Assembly (NCBI GenBank): GCA_018304615.1
Contig: JAGVVV010000006.1
Location: forward strand, 1 to 58,926
DNA: 58,926 bases
Source: Candidatus Aenigmatarchaeota archaeon
Lineage (GTDB): Archaea > Aenigmatarchaeota > Aenigmatarchaeia > CG10238-14 > SCSR01
Reading direction: 5' to 3'
A program made the translations under genes and the position numbers. The notes below the pieces were generated by a model. That model made no database searches. It had not been told where the DNA came from and was given only the letters and a program-made list of their open reading frames with translations. Positions 39,484 to 45,366 of the stretch are shown here, one piece after another (positions within the stretch are counted from its first letter, which is position 1; every line of letters starts with the position of its first letter).

Positions 39484-41814
39484 ATGAGATTCACTCCGAA
39501 GATAAAAGAAAAGGTCTGGGAAATAAAACTCGAGAAGAAGATTTTTGACAAGTGGACAAGCGAGAAGATCCATGTTTTCAATGTCAAGAGCAAGAAGAAG
39601 ATATTTGCCATAGACACTCCTCCTCCTTATCCGTCCGGAAGGCCGTGGCACATAGGTGCTGCCGCTCATTATTCTCAGATCGACATGATCGCTCGAACGG
39701 CGAGGATGATGGGAAAAGAAGTTTACTTCCCGATCGGGATAGACAGGAACGGAGTCCCTGTGGAGAATTACACTGAGAAGAAATTCAACATAAGAATGCA
39801 AGATACTCCCAGAGAAAAATTCCTGGAATTGGCGAAAACTGCTCTGGACGATCTGGAAGCAGAGATGATCGGGATAATGAAATCGATGGGACTGAGCGGG
39901 AATTTCGAGAATTATTACAGGACCGATTCCACTGAATACAGGAAATTAACGCAGACGACATTCATAATGATGTGGAAGAAAGGATTGATCTACGAGGACA
40001 TGAGGCCGAATAATTTCTGCATCGATTGCGGCACTACGATTGCTGACGCAGACATAACTTACGAGGATCTGCCTGCCCAACTCGTCTATATGAATTGGAA
40101 AGTGAAAGATTCCGATGAAAACATAATCATCGCCAGCACGAGACCGGAACTTATCTGCGCATGCCAGACTCTTATTGTAAATCCAGATGACGAAAGATTC
40201 AAGCATCTGCACGGAAAGTTTGCGACCATTCCAATTTACAACAGGGAAGTCAAAATAATTCCTCACCCTGCAGCTGATACTGAGTTCGGTAGCGGTGCGC
40301 TGATGATCTGCAGTTATGGTGATTACGAGGATGTCAGGCTGTTCAGGGAATTGGGGTTGAAAGAAGTTGTCGCCATAGATTCTAAAGGAAGGATGACAGA
40401 CAAGGCTGGAAAGTATGCCGGATTGAAGATAAAAGAGGCGAGGATGAAAATTATCCAAGATTTCGAGAATACTGGGATTATAATAAAAAAAGAGAACATA
40501 ACGCACAGGACACCTATCTGTGACAGGAGCAACACTCCGATAGAAATAATATCGATGAAAGAATTTTACCTGAAGCAGCTGGACTTTAAAGGAAAAATAA
40601 AAAAGGCTTCAGAAAAGCTGAAATTCCATCCAGAGGAACACAGGCAGATTCTCAACAACTGGATTGATGCTATTTCTATCGACTGGCCGATTTCAAGGAG
40701 AAGATTTTACGGTACAGAAATTCCAGTCTGGTTTTGCAAGTCCTGCAAGAAGGCTGTGGTTCCGGAGCCGGGAAAATACTACCAGCCATGGAAGGAGAGA
40801 AGCCCGGTTAGGAAATGCCCGTCATGCGGAGGAAGATCTTTCACAGGAGATGGTAGAACTTTCGACACATGGTTTGATTCAAGCATCTCCCCTCTGTTCA
40901 TAACAAAATTCATGAAAGACAAAACATTCTTTGCAAAAACCTATCCGTGCAGCATAAGGCCGCAGGCGAAAGACATAATCAGAACTTGGCTGTATTACAC
41001 ACTTTTGAGATGCTACCAGATCACAGGGAATCTCCCGTTCGAGCATGCGTGGATCCAGGGATATGGGGTGGACGAGAAGGGGGAGAAGATGAGCAAATCG
41101 AAAGGAAATGTCATCGATCCAATTCCCATTTTGGAAAAATATGGAGGTGACAATTTCAGATTCTGGGATGCGGCAGAAGCATCGCTCGGTTCAGATTTCA
41201 GATCTTCTGAGCAGAGGGTGATAGGATCATCCAAATTTTTGACGAAACTGTGGAATGTTGCCAAATACATCTCCATGTTTCCACAATCTCCAGAAGTGAA
41301 ACTAACTCCAACAGACAGATGGATTCTCGCAGAGTTGAACAAGGTTATCGAGGATTGCATGAAAGGATACGAAGATTTCAATTTCTTCATCCCCGCAAAC
41401 AGGATTAGGGAATTCGTGTGGAATGTCTTCGCACCGCACTATCTGGAGATGTCGAAGGCAAGGGCGTATGGGACTAATTTTTCAAAGGAAGACCAGAAGG
41501 CAGCATGGTTCACTCTGAACGAATGTTTGAAATCAATCCTTCTCTTGCTTGCTCCGATCACTCCGTTCCTCAGCGATTTTGTGTGGAGGACTCTGTACGG
41601 AAAGAAGAGCATCCACATAGAACAATTTCCAAAGACAAGATGGAAGAGCGATCTAGGAAAATTGACACAAGACATAATCGATTTCAACTCTGTTGTCTGG
41701 AACAAGAAGAAAGAGAAGAACATATCTTTGAAAGATCCGATCAAGATTGAAATACCGAAAGACCTGAAGGAGTTCGAAAAAGATCTCATAGTCATGCACA
41801 ATGCCAAATCTTAA
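39484..41814 (+). CDS. valS: Valyl-tRNA synthetase, archaeal type
   Basis: DTPPPYPSG, HIGA, STRPEL, DWPISRRR, DTWFDSS, KMSKS. Confidence 0.95.
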   Translation: MRFTPKIKEKVWEIKLEKKIFDKWTSEKIHVFNVKSKKKIFAIDTPPPYPSGRPWHIGAAAHYSQIDMIARTARMMGKEVYFPIGIDRNGVPVENYTEKKFNIRMQDTPREKFLELAKTALDDLEAEMIGIMKSMGLSGNFENYYRTDSTEYRKLTQTTFIMMWKKGLIYEDMRPNNFCIDCGTTIADADITYEDLPAQLVYMNWKVKDSDENIIIASTRPELICACQTLIVNPDDERFKHLHGKFATIPIYNREVKIIPHPAADTEFGSGALMICSYGDYEDVRLFRELGLKEVVAIDSKGRMTDKAGKYAGLKIKEARMKIIQDFENTGIIIKKENITHRTPICDRSNTPIEIISMKEFYLKQLDFKGKIKKASEKLKFHPEEHRQILNNWIDAISIDWPISRRRFYGTEIPVWFCKSCKKAVVPEPGKYYQPWKERSPVRKCPSCGGRSFTGDGRTFDTWFDSSISPLFITKFMKDKTFFAKTYPCSIRPQAKDIIRTWLYYTLLRCYQITGNLPFEHAWIQGYGVDEKGEKMSKSKGNVIDPIPILEKYGGDNFRFWDAAEASLGSDFRSSEQRVIGSSKFLTKLWNVAKYISMFPQSPEVKLTPTDRWILAELNKVIEDCMKGYEDFNFFIPANRIREFVWNVFAPHYLEMSKARAYGTNFSKEDQKAAWFTLNECLKSILLLLAPITPFLSDFVWRTLYGKKSIHIEQFPKTRWKSDLGKLTQDIIDFNSVVWNKKKEKNISLKDPIKIEIPKDLKEFEKDLIVMHNAKS

Positions 41815-41984
41815 TGCTTATGCCGATAAACAAACCATGGCATGAAAAAAACAGGATGCCGAAAAATCCTAATTTAGGACATAGAATTAAATGGCATCTA
41901 GAACATTCTAAAAACTGCGGTTGCAGAGAAATTCCTCAAAAGCTTTTAAGAGAGATGAAGAGGAGATCGACGAATAAAATTTAA
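41814..41984 (+). CDS. Small His/Cys-containing protein (not in ORF track)
   Basis: ATG overlaps the valS stop; MPINKPWHEKNRMPKNP...WHLEHSKNCGCREIP. Confidence 0.7.
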   Translation: MLMPINKPWHEKNRMPKNPNLGHRIKWHLEHSKNCGCREIPQKLLREMKRRSTNKI

Positions 41985-42011
41985 ATACGGGCGACAAACT
42001 ATAAACAGTCG

Positions 42012-43221
42012 GTGACTTGCATTTAATGAAGAACAAATCTACAGGCTTAGAAAGCTCATCAAAGAGCTAGATTCTTATAGAGGTAGGCATACCGAACTTG
42101 TTTCTGTTTACATTCCTGCTGGATATCAAGTTTCTGATGTCATCAACCAACTAACCAATGAAAAATCCACTGCAAGCAACATCAAGAGCAAGACCACTAG
42201 AAAGAACGTCCTCACTGCCTTGGAAAAAATAATCCAGCATCTGCGATTGCTTAAGCAAACTCCGGAGAATGGTTTTGTAGTTTTCTCTGGCAATGTCTCT
42301 CCGATAGAAGGAAAGGAAGACATAAGAATCTGGTCTTTCGAACCGCCGATAAAAATGAACCAGAAGATGTACTGGTGCGACCAGAAGTTTGTTATAGAAC
42401 CGTTAAGAGATTTCATCCAGGAAAAGGAAGTTTACGGTCTGATAGTTTTGGATGCAAAGGAAGCGTACATAGGACTGTTGAAAGGAAAATCTATTGTAGT
42501 GGTCAAGCATGACGACTCTACTGTCCCATCTAAATCTGTGAAAGGAGGAATGTCAGCCCGCAGATACGACAGGATCAGAGAAGATGCTCTGAACGAATTT
42601 TTCAGGAAAATTGCTGAGCTTGCATCTCAGGCATTCTTGCAGGAAAAAAATATCAAGGGTGTGATAATCGGCGGACCGGGCCCGATAAAAGAAATGTTCT
42701 ACAAAGGAAACTACCTCCATTACGAAATCCAAAACAAAGTTTTGGGAGTGAAAGATACGAGTTATACAGACGAGACTGGGTTGGAGGAGATTGTTCATAG
42801 GTCAGAAGACTTGTTGAAGGAAACTTCAATCGCCAAAGAGAGGGAACTTTTGAACGCATTTTTCACTGAACTCCAAAAAGACGGAAAGATTACTTATGGG
42901 TTGAAGGAGGTAGAGAAGGCCCTTGAGATGGGGGCTGTGGAGACTCTTTTGATTTCTGAGGAATTCGACAAAATAAGAGGAAAGTTCATCTGCCAGAACG
43001 AGCATGAGTTTGAAAAAGACGCGAAGAAGGATATGGATGTTAAATGTCCAGAATGTCTTGCACCTGCTAAACTCCATCAATTCAAAGATCTCAATGAATA
43101 TCTGATCGAACGTGCGAAAACTTTAGGCGCGAAGGTCGAAGTGATCTCGACCCAAACTGGTGAAGGAAAACAATTCAAAGAACTTGGCGGAATAGCTGCT
43201 TTTCTGAGGTACAAAATCTAG
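42012..43221 (+). CDS. prf1: Peptide chain release factor aRF1; start out of frame (candidate +1 frameshift); GGM in place of GGQ
   Basis: The frame of ORF 42220 extends upstream through RGRHTELVSVYIP and NIKS to TGA at 42013 with no ATG/GTG/TTG; YWCD, GPG and GGIAAFLRY motifs. Confidence 0.93.
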
Positions 43222-44036
43222 ACTTTCTGATAGACTCGATACTTTGGCCTTTTCCATTTGTCGTAGAGTTTCTTCCAATCGTCTTTCTTCCTCTTGAATA
43301 TGAAGAAGAACACGAACAGGGGAATCAATACTACAATCAACACGATAGCAAGAATCAATCCCCATGGGAATTCGTTACCTGTTTCCTGTGGAGTAGTTGT
43401 ACTTATCTCCTGGCAGTTGTTCGCAACGCATTCAAATCCATCTGAGCAGGACTTGTCAAAGAAAGAGTCTTCATTCTGGCAGCAGTCAAATTGACAATCT
43501 TGTTTAGAAATAGTTGTGGTTGTTGGAGTGGGAGTTGAAGTTGTAGTCGTAGTGACAATCAACGGTGCTTGGCAGATTCCATTAACACATTGAAGACCGG
43601 GGCAGCAGATACTGAAAGCGGTGCACACATTTCCAAGCGGACGGCAACTGATACCTCCGCCACCGCCACCACCTCCTCCGCTAGTCGTTGCTGTAGTCGT
43701 TCCAGAAGTGGTTGCTGTAGTCGTAGATGTTGTTGGAGCTGATGATACGCTAACTGAGCTGCAGGAAGTGACTATTGATGTGTTGTCGCAGAAAGGTTTA
43801 GCGTAAAAGGTTCCAGTTGAAGACGGGTACCATGTCGCAGATCCAGAAGTGATGTAAGGGTTGTCAGAAGGCGGACCTGAACATGTATTTGTAGGATAAA
43901 TGAGAAGTTTTCCAGAAGAACAATCTGATACAGTGCAATTGCATGAATTGGTGTCGCATGTCGAGCATGAGACTGAACCGTAGACTGCCGAAGGGATGAA
44001 GAGTAAAAATGCGGCGATAATTATAATTTTTTTCAT
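43218..44036 (-). CDS. Cys-rich, Thr-linker surface protein with C-terminal TM
   Basis: Signal peptide, several Cys modules, TM followed by a basic tail. Confidence 0.8.
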   Translation of the reverse strand: MKKIIIIAAFLLFIPSAVYGSVSCSTCDTNSCNCTVSDCSSGKLLIYPTNTCSGPPSDNPYITSGSATWYPSSTGTFYAKPFCDNTSIVTSCSSVSVSSAPTTSTTTATTSGTTTATTSGGGGGGGGGISCRPLGNVCTAFSICCPGLQCVNGICQAPLIVTTTTTSTPTPTTTTISKQDCQFDCCQNEDSFFDKSCSDGFECVANNCQEISTTTPQETGNEFPWGLILAIVLIVVLIPLFVFFFIFKRKKDDWKKLYDKWKRPKYRVYQKV

Positions 44037-44040
44037 ACCA

Positions 44041-45366
44041 TCAACAGGTCAAAGTTTTGTCTTGTGAAGTTGTGGAATATGCAATCGGAGTTGTCAAGTC
44101 AGTGTCGCTCTTCTTGTAGGCAATCCATGAGATCTTGTATGTCCCGGTTCCGTATGTCGAGCAGTAGAAGTTGAAGATTAGAATGTCTCCCAATGTGGAA
44201 GTCGCCCCTCCGCTGCTGATTATTTTGCTTTTTGAATTTGAGACAAGGAACAGGACGTTGATACTCTCCAGATAGTTGGAGTTGAAGTCGAACATGCACT
44301 GGTAACCTATCGAGAGCGGCGAGCATGTGAAGTTCAGAGGAACTATACTCTGCAATACATTGATTTTGAAGTTGGCAAATCCGGAATGTGAGGAATCACC
44401 TGAGTCCGAAGCGGTTGCGTTCAGTGTGTAGTTGCTTGGTAATGCGAAGTTGGTATGGTAGCTGAAATTCACCAATCTCGACTGGCCAGGTGCAAGATTG
44501 AAAGTGCTGGAATCAGACGTGATGTCGAACATGTTGAATGATCGATTGAATAAAGTGAACGATTCTTGGGAAGTGTTGAAAATGAATTGGGTGCTGCCGC
44601 AGGCCGTGTCGTCCATGTTTGTGACATTGGCTGTGAAGTTGACAGTCTCTCCGAGTTTAAGGGTGGCAGAAGTAGGATTGACGGTTATATCTGGTTTATT
44701 TCTTATACAGCCTGGTTGAGAAGTTGTAGTGGTGGTGGTTGTTCCACAAGCTCCAGGGCATGACTGAATAGCTGCTCCAAATTGATTACAACTAACATTT
44801 AGTAGAAAACAATTCGCAGAAGGTGCTGTTGGACATCCGCCTGAAGAAATCAAACAACAACAGAACTGTTCAGTACCAGTGGTTGTGGTGGTTGTCGTAG
44901 TTGTTGTGGTGCTTGTCGTAGTAGTTGTGGTGGTCGTGGTTGTACTTTTAATTTGAATCAGAGGGCTGCCTTCCTTAGTTTGAATCAGAGGGCTGCCTTC
45001 TTTGATGATCATCAATGGGCTGCCTTCTTTGATGATCATCAATGGGCTGCCTTCCTTAGTTTGAATCAGAGGGCTGCCTTCCTTAGTTTGAATCAGAGGG
45101 CTGCCTTCTTTGATGATCATCAATGGGCTGCCCTCCTTCTCTATAATCAGAGGGCTGCCTTCCTTAATTTGGATTAAGGGACTGCCTTCCTTAATTTGGA
45201 TTAAGGGACTGCCTTCCTTAATTTGAATCAGAGGGCTTCCCTCTAATATCATACCTAGTTGAGGTCCACGCTCGATATAATTCGAGATAAATGAATAATT
45301 TGACACAACAACAGCGACTGCAAAAATAGCAATCAGAATAATTACATATGTAATAAAAGGCTGCAT
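44041..45366 (-). CDS. Membrane-anchored surface protein with 11 x 9-aa repeats
   Basis: (EGSPLxxxK)11, Thr tracts, Ig-like domain, many NxS/T sites. Confidence 0.85.
   Translation of the reverse strand: MQPFITYVIILIAIFAVAVVVSNYSFISNYIERGPQLGMILEGSPLIQIKEGSPLIQIKEGSPLIQIKEGSPLIIEKEGSPLMIIKEGSPLIQTKEGSPLIQTKEGSPLMIIKEGSPLMIIKEGSPLIQTKEGSPLIQIKSTTTTTTTTTTSTTTTTTTTTTTGTEQFCCCLISSGGCPTAPSANCFLLNVSCNQFGAAIQSCPGACGTTTTTTTSQPGCIRNKPDITVNPTSATLKLGETVNFTANVTNMDDTACGSTQFIFNTSQESFTLFNRSFNMFDITSDSSTFNLAPGQSRLVNFSYHTNFALPSNYTLNATASDSGDSSHSGFANFKINVLQSIVPLNFTCSPLSIGYQCMFDFNSNYLESINVLFLVSNSKSKIISSGGATSTLGDILIFNFYCSTYGTGTYKISWIAYKKSDTDLTTPIAYSTTSQDKTLTC
44947..45243. repeat. Coding tandem repeat, 11 x 27 bp
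   Basis: In-frame units IQIK x3, IIEK, MIIK, IQTK x2, MIIK x2, IQTK, IQIK. Confidence 0.95.

Follow-up and report, generated by a model that had tools for sequence, protein, structure and literature searches.

A probable +1 recoding signal in place of a start codon in aRF1 genes of an Aenigmatarchaeota order

How is a release factor gene translated when its reading frame offers no start codon? The gene for the archaeal class-I release factor aRF1 raises this question in a contig of 58,926 nucleotides (nt) from a Candidatus Aenigmatarchaeota archaeon (JAGVVV010000006.1, assembly GCA_018304615.1), the whole of which we call the window. It is contig 17 of a metagenome-assembled genome of 785 kb in 22 contigs, 89% complete. 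The aRF1 frame is closed upstream by a TGA at 42013–42015 and open from 42016 to a stop at 43219–43221 (401 codons), and it runs TTT (42022) AAT GAA GAA CAA ATC (42037) onward. In a listing of open reading frames (ORFs) that allowed ATG, GTG and TTG starts, its first in-frame candidate is a TTG at 42220, where a start would cost the protein 66 residues of its N domain. The sole entry to the frame is a +1 shift at ATT (42021)–TAA (42024). The initial annotation of this DNA had pointed to the lack of an N-terminal in-frame ATG, GTG or TTG, and it had placed a TATA-like box, the string GTG ACT TGC ATT TAA (42012–42026) and the TGA at 42013 exactly where we find them. We consider it likely that aRF1 is expressed through programmed +1 recoding at its 5′ end, with negative feedback by aRF1 itself, in a manner convergent with the bacterial release factor gene prfB. 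The elements on which the argument turns are the following:

41980–41987, forward strand: TATA-like box TTTAAATA, seen in the sequence 41 nt upstream of ATT.
42011–42015, forward strand: Shine–Dalgarno (SD)-like GGTGA, with GGTG exactly 6 nt upstream of ATT.
42012–42014, forward strand: GTG that shares the frame of ATT-TAA and could start an ORF of four codons (ORF0; GTG ACT TGC ATT TAA).
42013–42015, forward strand: TGA that closes the aRF1 frame upstream, seen in the sequence.
42021–42023, forward strand: ATT, the P-site codon at the proposed shift, either the last sense codon of ORF0 or a near-cognate initiation codon.
42024–42027, forward strand: the 0-frame stop TAA and its next base (here T), the proposed sensor of release-factor activity.
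42025–43221, forward strand: the +1-frame coding sequence of aRF1, which begins with AAT, the codon that would be read first once the frame has shifted, and ends with the stop at 43219–43221.

From 42011 onward the sequence reads GGTGACTTGC ATT TAA T GAA GAA, and 23 nt separate TTTAAATA from 42011. An ATG at 42026 overlaps the 0-frame stop (TAATG).

What does the startless frame encode? Its product is a complete aRF-1 from which only a start is missing. It matches the NCBIfam equivalog TIGR03676 with 487.9 bits (cut-off 234.7), residues 8–401 corresponding to profile positions 2–403 of 403; the Pfam domains eRF1_1, eRF1_2 and eRF1_3 cover its full length, and the solved Halobacterium aRF1 (PDB 4af1) matches it with an E value of 2.6e-84. 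The stop-recognition motifs NIKS and YxCxxxF are visible in the translation, and membership of this family suggests that the protein reads UAA and UAG. The genome contains one gene with an eRF1 M domain, the aRF1 gene at this locus; no second such domain was found in it.

Is the missing start peculiar to this genome? The initial annotation had predicted that relatives would conserve an xTT-stop in the same relative frame, as against having ordinary starts throughout. A search with the aRF1 N domain gave a match in 105 of 118 genomes of the window's order, and we examined 106 5′ ends (30 loci and 76 further regions), one genome giving two copies. Two partial secondary hits were excluded from the 106, one at a contig start (G100:C86) and one a fragment with two stops (G062:C14). 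Measuring from the conserved GRHTEL block, we classed each gene by an in-frame ATG before the block or by A-TTT-A[AG] or A-TTT-GA with TTT in the aRF1 frame. The genes split cleanly: 58 of 106 have an ATT-stop without ATG, always as ATT-TAA, ATT-TAG or ATT-TGA, 47 have an ATG, and one (L024) has a TTG at the same position. Thus the predicted xTT-stop is present, and ordinary starts are far from universal among the relatives. The TTT lies at codon −20 relative to GRHTEL in 42 of the 58 sites, and 29 of the 47 ATG genes have their ATG at this same codon, so that the two kinds of start occupy the same place. Genome G096 was seen to carry a second aRF1 copy typical of another genus.

The 58 frameshift-type genes span 23 genera and 4 families. 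All 18 genes of family f4 are of this type, family f1 has 30 together with 34 ATG genes and the single TTG gene, and family f5 has 9 together with 8 ATG genes. On a FastTree phylogeny of the 106 N domains, computed with the site excluded, the distribution of the two states requires 11 changes, as compared with an average of 35 when the labels are shuffled. The start state is therefore clustered on the aRF1 tree yet has switched repeatedly.

We then looked beyond the order. A pattern of ATTTRR, 49–67 free positions and a GRHTE anchor, which recovers 53 of the 58 sites and none of the 47 ATG genes in frame, matches 65 of 371 genomes of the phylum, as against 2 for a reversed control pattern; nearly all matches fall within the window's order. 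Outside it there is one clear case, G263, in which a GAGGGGAT element and TAT precede ATT TAA G and neither frame has a start; two others are ambiguous, a GTG falling in the aRF1 frame in G338 and following the site in frame in G272. Among aRF1 genes sampled from nine other families, 20 of 20 start with ATG. A stricter pattern, run over one genome per species in 185,579 species, returned 41 stretches, 40 of them frameshift-type aRF1 genes and the remaining one a chance match, not in aRF1, in a haloarchaeon. By record title, the 40 comprise 23 Candidatus Aenigmatarchaeota or Aenigmarchaeota, 15 uncultured archaeon, 1 Micrarchaeota and 1 contig binned as Gammaproteobacteria; since they largely coincide with the genomes counted above, they do not count as independent evidence. 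The contig titled uncultured Gammaproteobacteria bacterium (L155) carries a frameshift-type aRF1 with 71% identity to the N domain of the window and is probably archaeal DNA placed in a bacterial bin.

Which bases are conserved at the site? In a position table of the 58 sites, with the A of ATT as position 0, information is confined to GGTG (−10 to −7) and to ATTTAR-C (0 to +6). The GGTG block has G in 50, G in 57, T in 49 (otherwise G) and G in 54. The following six bases are nearly free (0.2–0.7 bits each), whereas ATT is invariant (58/58, 1.74 bits per position), as is the T after it; position +4 is A in 57 and position +5 is A in 37 and G in 21. The overlapping 0-frame triplet is thus a stop in all 58 genes (TAA in 36, TAG in 21, TGA in 1); in the window's own genome, TGA ends 170 of 477 long ORFs. 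The invariance does not follow codon usage: ATC and ATA make up 60% of isoleucine codons and TTC is the commoner phenylalanine codon in this genome, yet ATT and TTT never vary at the site. The ATG-type genes serve as a control: of 46 such genes, 18 have an A directly before the ATG, and 33 have a second codon that would complete a stop if a T came before it, the stop being TGA in 20 of these. Since these positions vary in the control, the invariance among the 58 is not inherited from constraints on the protein.

The context of the stop is also conserved. The base after it is C in 45 of the 58 sites, G in 6, T in 4 and A in 3, and in the window's genome fewer long ORFs have C behind their stop than any other base (53/477, 11%). 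A C that is conserved here and rare after real stops places the proposed recoding stop in a context that genuine stops avoid, as in prfB.

We also asked whether the upstream element resembles a ribosome-binding site. GGTG stands at a spacing of 6 nt in 45 of the 58 genes, with G-rich variants at the same place in the rest; where its T is replaced (GGGG, AGGG, GGAGGG), the potential to pair with the 16S tail is kept and is often extended by ATC. The 16S 3′ end of four relatives, GGATCACCTCCT, is complementary to GGTG. GGTG peaks 5–6 nt before the ATG of long ORFs in the window's genome and 5–8 nt before that of ATG-type aRF1 genes; the spacer of 6 nt is thus the ordinary GGTG–ATG spacing and not the 3 nt of prfB. 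These data argue that the conserved GGTG may act as an SD sequence rather than as a codon. The 16S matches in four relatives (L141–L144, from G114, G074, G006 and G073) span 1877–2575 nt, as compared with a model of 1478 positions, and carry large insertions.

The complete signal is specific to aRF1. The window's genome contains 2285 ATT-stop sites, and behind 262 of them a +1 ORF extends for at least 100 codons; GGTG at the 6-nt spacing precedes just one of the 262, and this one is aRF1. In short, the aRF1 gene has no other way to start, and the signal recurs in 58 genes of 23 genera.

How might such a site be read? Only one reading fits all 58 genes: the ribosome holds AUU in its P site and a stop in its A site, and then moves forward by one base. 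From this we infer the +1 shift itself. In the circuit that we propose, GGTG(A) would act like an SD sequence to set AUU (42021–42023) in the P site and UAA (42024–42026) in the A site. Because the stop would be read by the gene's own product, abundant aRF1 would end the event and scarce aRF1 would permit the shift. With plentiful aRF1, the stop would be recognised, the event aborted and no aRF1 made; with scarce aRF1, the A site would be empty, the frame would move by +1 (A-UUU-AAU), Asn-tRNA would decode AAU and full-length aRF1 would follow. Across the 58 genes, the next codon to be decoded after such a move is AAY, AGY or AAR. The analogy with prfB suggests that the level of aRF1 would feed back on its own synthesis.

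How far does the analogy with prfB go? As far as the portions of the literature considered here describe it, the prfB frameshift has the consensus YTT_TRA_C (PMC3711429), and its SD sequence lies 3 nt upstream of the shift codon, where it strains the ribosome, with a conserved C after the stop (PMC12421855). The aRF1 signal shares several of these features: (i) the gene encodes a class-I release factor that would itself read the shift-site stop, and a main ORF that lacks its own start is in the +1 frame; (ii) the core is xTT-T-stop-C, here as ATT_TAR_C; (iii) an SD-like element lies upstream and the C after the stop is conserved; and (iv) the arrangement is patchy within its clade and has repeatedly been exchanged for an ordinary start. 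It differs in others: aRF1 belongs to the eRF1/aRF1 fold family and is not homologous to RF2; the Escherichia coli stop is codon 26 of a translated ORF (25 codons with a canonical start), whereas ORF0 has at most four codons or does not exist; the SD-like element stands 6 nt and not 3 nt before the shift codon; this codon is ATT and never CTT or TTT, whereas the YTT of prfB re-pairs fully on TTT; and the stop is TAA or TAG, almost never TGA. The resemblance is one of convergence, not of descent or membership.

By what route does AUU reach the P site? Granted that recoding is real, we somewhat favour direct, SD-guided initiation on the near-cognate AUU by Met-tRNAi, with an empty E site. An empty E site reportedly favours +1 shifts in prfB. 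Alternatively, ribosomes may start at the GUG of ORF0 (42012), on a leaderless or nearly leaderless transcript, translate GTG ACT TGC ATT and shift when Ile-tRNA(GAU) slips from AUU to UUU at the UAA; granted recoding, this route has a fair claim but comes second, and taken by itself it appears rather unlikely. The initial annotation had proposed such a shift after a GTG-started ORF; the recoding part of that proposal is borne out in 58 relatives, whereas an in-frame open GTG three codons upstream of ATT, and with it a GTG start, is present in only 45 of them.

Thirteen sites are without the GTG; GTA or GTC stands there naturally in L054, L072 and L063. In ten of the 13, the open 0-frame stretch contains no ATG, GTG or TTG at all, and, taken together with GGTG at the spacing of a start codon, these ten favour AUU initiation. 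In L044, moreover, a GTG is separated from ATT by a 0-frame TGA directly before ATT. The GTG of the other genes has a simple explanation, as a fixed spacer of 6 nt automatically puts the GTG inside GGTG in frame; the constant length of ORF0 thus fits a rule of distance better than a rule of frame. The invariant A also counts for AUU initiation, since an elongator tRNA would slip as well or better on CTT or TTT, and a near-cognate start codon needs precisely A and U as its first two bases.

One point in favour of the GTG route concerns transcription. The TATA-like box 41 nt before ATT may place the start of the transcript at or just before GGTG, to judge from its position. Across relatives the distance varies: TATA-like 8-mers gather only weakly at −41 to −39, where 10 of the 58 have one, and keep no fixed distance from the site across all of them. 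For the GTG route there is also a tRNA-Ile(GAT) gene in the genome.

Several points weigh against our reading as a whole or against AUU initiation within it. The feedback is argued from analogy only, and the locus is known here from its DNA sequence. The related genomes are not independent samples, well-supported branches forcing at least 3 of the 11 changes of state. The window's own site carries T and not C after the stop, and a search of its assembly for the 16S 3′ end found none, the anti-SD sequence being read from the relatives instead. After a +1 move onto UUU, the initiator tRNA would keep one of three base pairs (the middle one), whereas Ile-tRNA(GAU) would keep two of three. We know of no precedent for initiator frameshifting on a near-cognate start. 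With its core xTT-T-stop-C, the site comes very close to the prfB heptamer, which fits slippage by an elongator tRNA and hence the GTG route, as do the GTG in frame in 45 of 58 genes and a 0-frame stop in only 1 of the 45 GGTG-N6 spacers.

Could the shift be real but constitutive, giving a low, fixed output of aRF1 or a leaky start that does not sense aRF1? Sensing is argued from analogy, and the 11 exchanges of the switch on the tree suggest that it is dispensable. We nevertheless regard a constitutive shift as improbable: the signal is confined to the one gene whose product reads the stop, a stop is required and not just any slow codon, and the weak-context C is selected. Repeated loss is also no distinguishing mark, for prfB has likewise been lost repeatedly, according to the part of the source considered (PMC13245932).

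A still less probable explanation dispenses with the frameshift altogether. The initial annotation had named the ATC at 42037, five codons downstream, as an alternative non-canonical start; UUU as a decayed TTG would be another, the ATT-stop then being incidental. A single change of TTG to TTT in A-TTG-AAx indeed creates ATT-TAA-x, and L024 has a TTG at that place. However, the ATC is not conserved and no near-cognate codon is conserved anywhere: upstream of TTT, such a codon is absent in 21 of the 58 sites, and in 11 the whole stretch between the upstream stop and the fifth codon after the site is free of them. UUU itself differs from AUG at two positions. An in-frame start also leaves unexplained why A and the stop are each found in 58 of 58 genes (a stop would form in 33 of 46 ATG genes, mostly through GA), why C is preferred after the stop and why the spacing of GGTG is fixed.

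There is hardly any chance that the site is an artefact of a one-base assembly error or the remnant of a pseudogene, although the window does come from a metagenome-assembled genome in 22 contigs: the ORFs are intact over about 400 codons, the same architecture recurs in 58 genomes from many assembly projects, the genome holds no other aRF1 that we could find, and independent contigs agree. These are Logan contigs from 4 public DNA runs in 3 studies of groundwater and soil metagenomes, each covering at least 41700–42322, without indels and with substitutions only at 41758, 41778, 41876, 41882 and 42075. The one-base error that the initial annotation had offered as an alternative thus falls away, as the contigs restore no in-frame start, and the site is not an assembly error. 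One of the four runs may itself be the source of the window, so that the comparative argument is the stronger one. The public runs that contain the locus are DNA only, no RNA run being listed, and are silent on expression either way.

Other candidates were rejected. A start at ATG 42026–42028 followed by a −1 shift would use a third-frame ORF that reaches TAG at 42068–42070 after 14 codons; it is not conserved, the relatives mostly having C after the stop. Transcriptional slippage on TTT would need a longer run. An mRNA intron and a downstream structural stimulator were both dropped, as no conserved RNA structure was found: RNAalifold gave an energy of 0.0 for 18 frameshift-type sequences (one per genus, three windows), and 14 ATG-type control sequences likewise gave no structure. 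The window's own 90-nt stretch folds with z = −2.2 relative to mononucleotide shuffles, and this fold is not conserved. Stop-codon reassignment fails because long ORFs end with each of TAA, TAG and TGA. Coupling to the valine-tRNA ligase gene on the upstream side was set aside, since the two genes are adjacent in some relatives only and an ORF of 56 codons lies between them here.

The aRF1 proteins of this order have a second peculiarity. The GGQ motif of release factors is usually treated as invariant. The catalytic GGQ is absent from the window's aRF1, which has GGM (42544–42552) in KGGMSARRY, as compared with KGGQSAQRF in 4af1 and RGGQSALRF in human eRF1. All 30 loci of the order that we examined (this gene and relatives among L003–L031) have GG followed by M, W, Y or F, and most have a glutamine two residues later (GGxSQ), although the window's protein and L024 do not. 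Elsewhere in the phylum (L187–L205), tblastn showed GGQS to be kept in 16 loci from 14 families and GGW to occur in families f27, f34, f38 and f39; L206 gave no match in this comparison. All frameshift-type genes seen fall inside the group that lacks GGQ. A GGxSQ form is reported for Vms1-like factors in the part of the paper considered (PMC6514570).

We tentatively suggest, at somewhat less than even confidence, that the site works at initiation, as a start-stop frameshift sensor that makes no ORF0 peptide. The very first event in the A site would then be a competition, in which aRF1 reads the stop or Asn- or Ser-tRNA reads the +1 codon. The clade in which this sensor would have evolved has an aRF1 that has also replaced the catalytic glutamine of GGQ. 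As a separate observation, many aRF1 genes of the order (e.g., G016:C48, G022:C7, G004:C4, G095:C23) carry an in-frame insertion of the size of an intein. Their frames are 540–980 codons long and the match to aRF1 is split near residue 180; the insertion comes directly after GGM or GGW, where the sequence continues with Cys (GGMC, GGWC).

Is the aRF1 signal a member of some other known class? In Euplotes, +1 shifts take place where a codon rich in U or A comes before UAA or UAG; they are genome-wide and tied to an altered eRF1, whereas here one gene per genome is concerned. Bacterial infC, which encodes IF3, uses a weak AUU start codon in the self-control of a translation factor gene, but its AUU is in frame and sensed by IF3, and neither a stop nor a frameshift is involved. 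The closest viral case is Mimivirus R726 and Megavirus mg280, an eRF1/aRF1-family factor whose own mRNA needs recoding at stops, through frameshift and readthrough, in a way proposed to be autoregulatory (PMC3521657, in part); it has two internal events in a viral gene, in contrast to a single 5′ event, followed by a +1 ORF open for 401 codons, in a cellular one. In antizyme, a +1 shift at the codon before the ORF1 stop is both sensor and effector of a feedback loop. Antizyme is eukaryotic and senses polyamines, and stimulatory signals flank its shift site according to the text considered (PMC1874602), whereas no conserved structure was found here. Plant eRF1 likewise regulates its own mRNA according to how efficiently translation terminates at a stop, but does so, in the account considered, by readthrough and nonsense-mediated decay and not by a frameshift at the start (PMC5397192).

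Has an archaeal case been described? The portion of Jeudy et al. (2012) considered here states that such mechanisms are absent from the archaeal and eukaryotic homologues (PMC3521657). Our search of open-access papers, without supplements, for frameshifting in aRF1, Archaea, DPANN or Aenigma* lineages found no description of an archaeal aRF1 case. A 2016 review of recoding does not mention aRF1 in the part covered, nor does the part considered of the 2013 GeneTack survey of 77 archaeal genomes larger than 1 Mb (PMC3711429). To our knowledge, the circuit would be the first of its kind in a cellular aRF1/eRF1 gene.

The surroundings of the gene complete the description. The upstream gene (39484–41814) encodes valine-tRNA ligase. 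It is followed by the 56-codon ORF (41814–41984), whose His/Cys-rich product (HLEHSKNCGC) matches no NCBIfam family and whose last codons overlap the TATA-like box. In many relatives, aRF1 directly follows the ligase gene, and there the TTTAAA of the codons for the C-terminal KDLK of the ligase lies about 30 nt before GGTG. On the minus strand, 43218–45366 holds two adjacent ORFs of 272 and 441 codons with an N-terminal hydrophobic segment, long Thr runs and Cys-rich blocks; the ORF of 441 codons contains about eleven tandem copies of a KEGSPLIQ-like unit.

What would the signal mean for translation in these archaea? So far, release factors that control themselves by a frameshift at a stop have been regarded as peculiar to bacteria, giant viruses being the one oddity. 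If our reading is true, an unrelated archaeal release factor has come to use a signal that differs little from the seven bases of prfB. This would be a clear instance of convergence, and it would place the xUU-U-stop-C design near the optimum for ribosomes that differ widely. Should AUU initiation also be true, the frameshift would be made by an initiating ribosome, for which we know of no earlier description. In practical terms, a gene caller that accepts only ATG, GTG and TTG would set the start of aRF1 too far downstream in the genomes of at least 58 species. Finally, a signal as minimal as this one (an SD sequence, six free bases, AUU and a stop) would offer a compact test bed for how frame is set in archaeal translation, in which the contributions of the P-site tRNA, the E site and SD pairing could each be tested.

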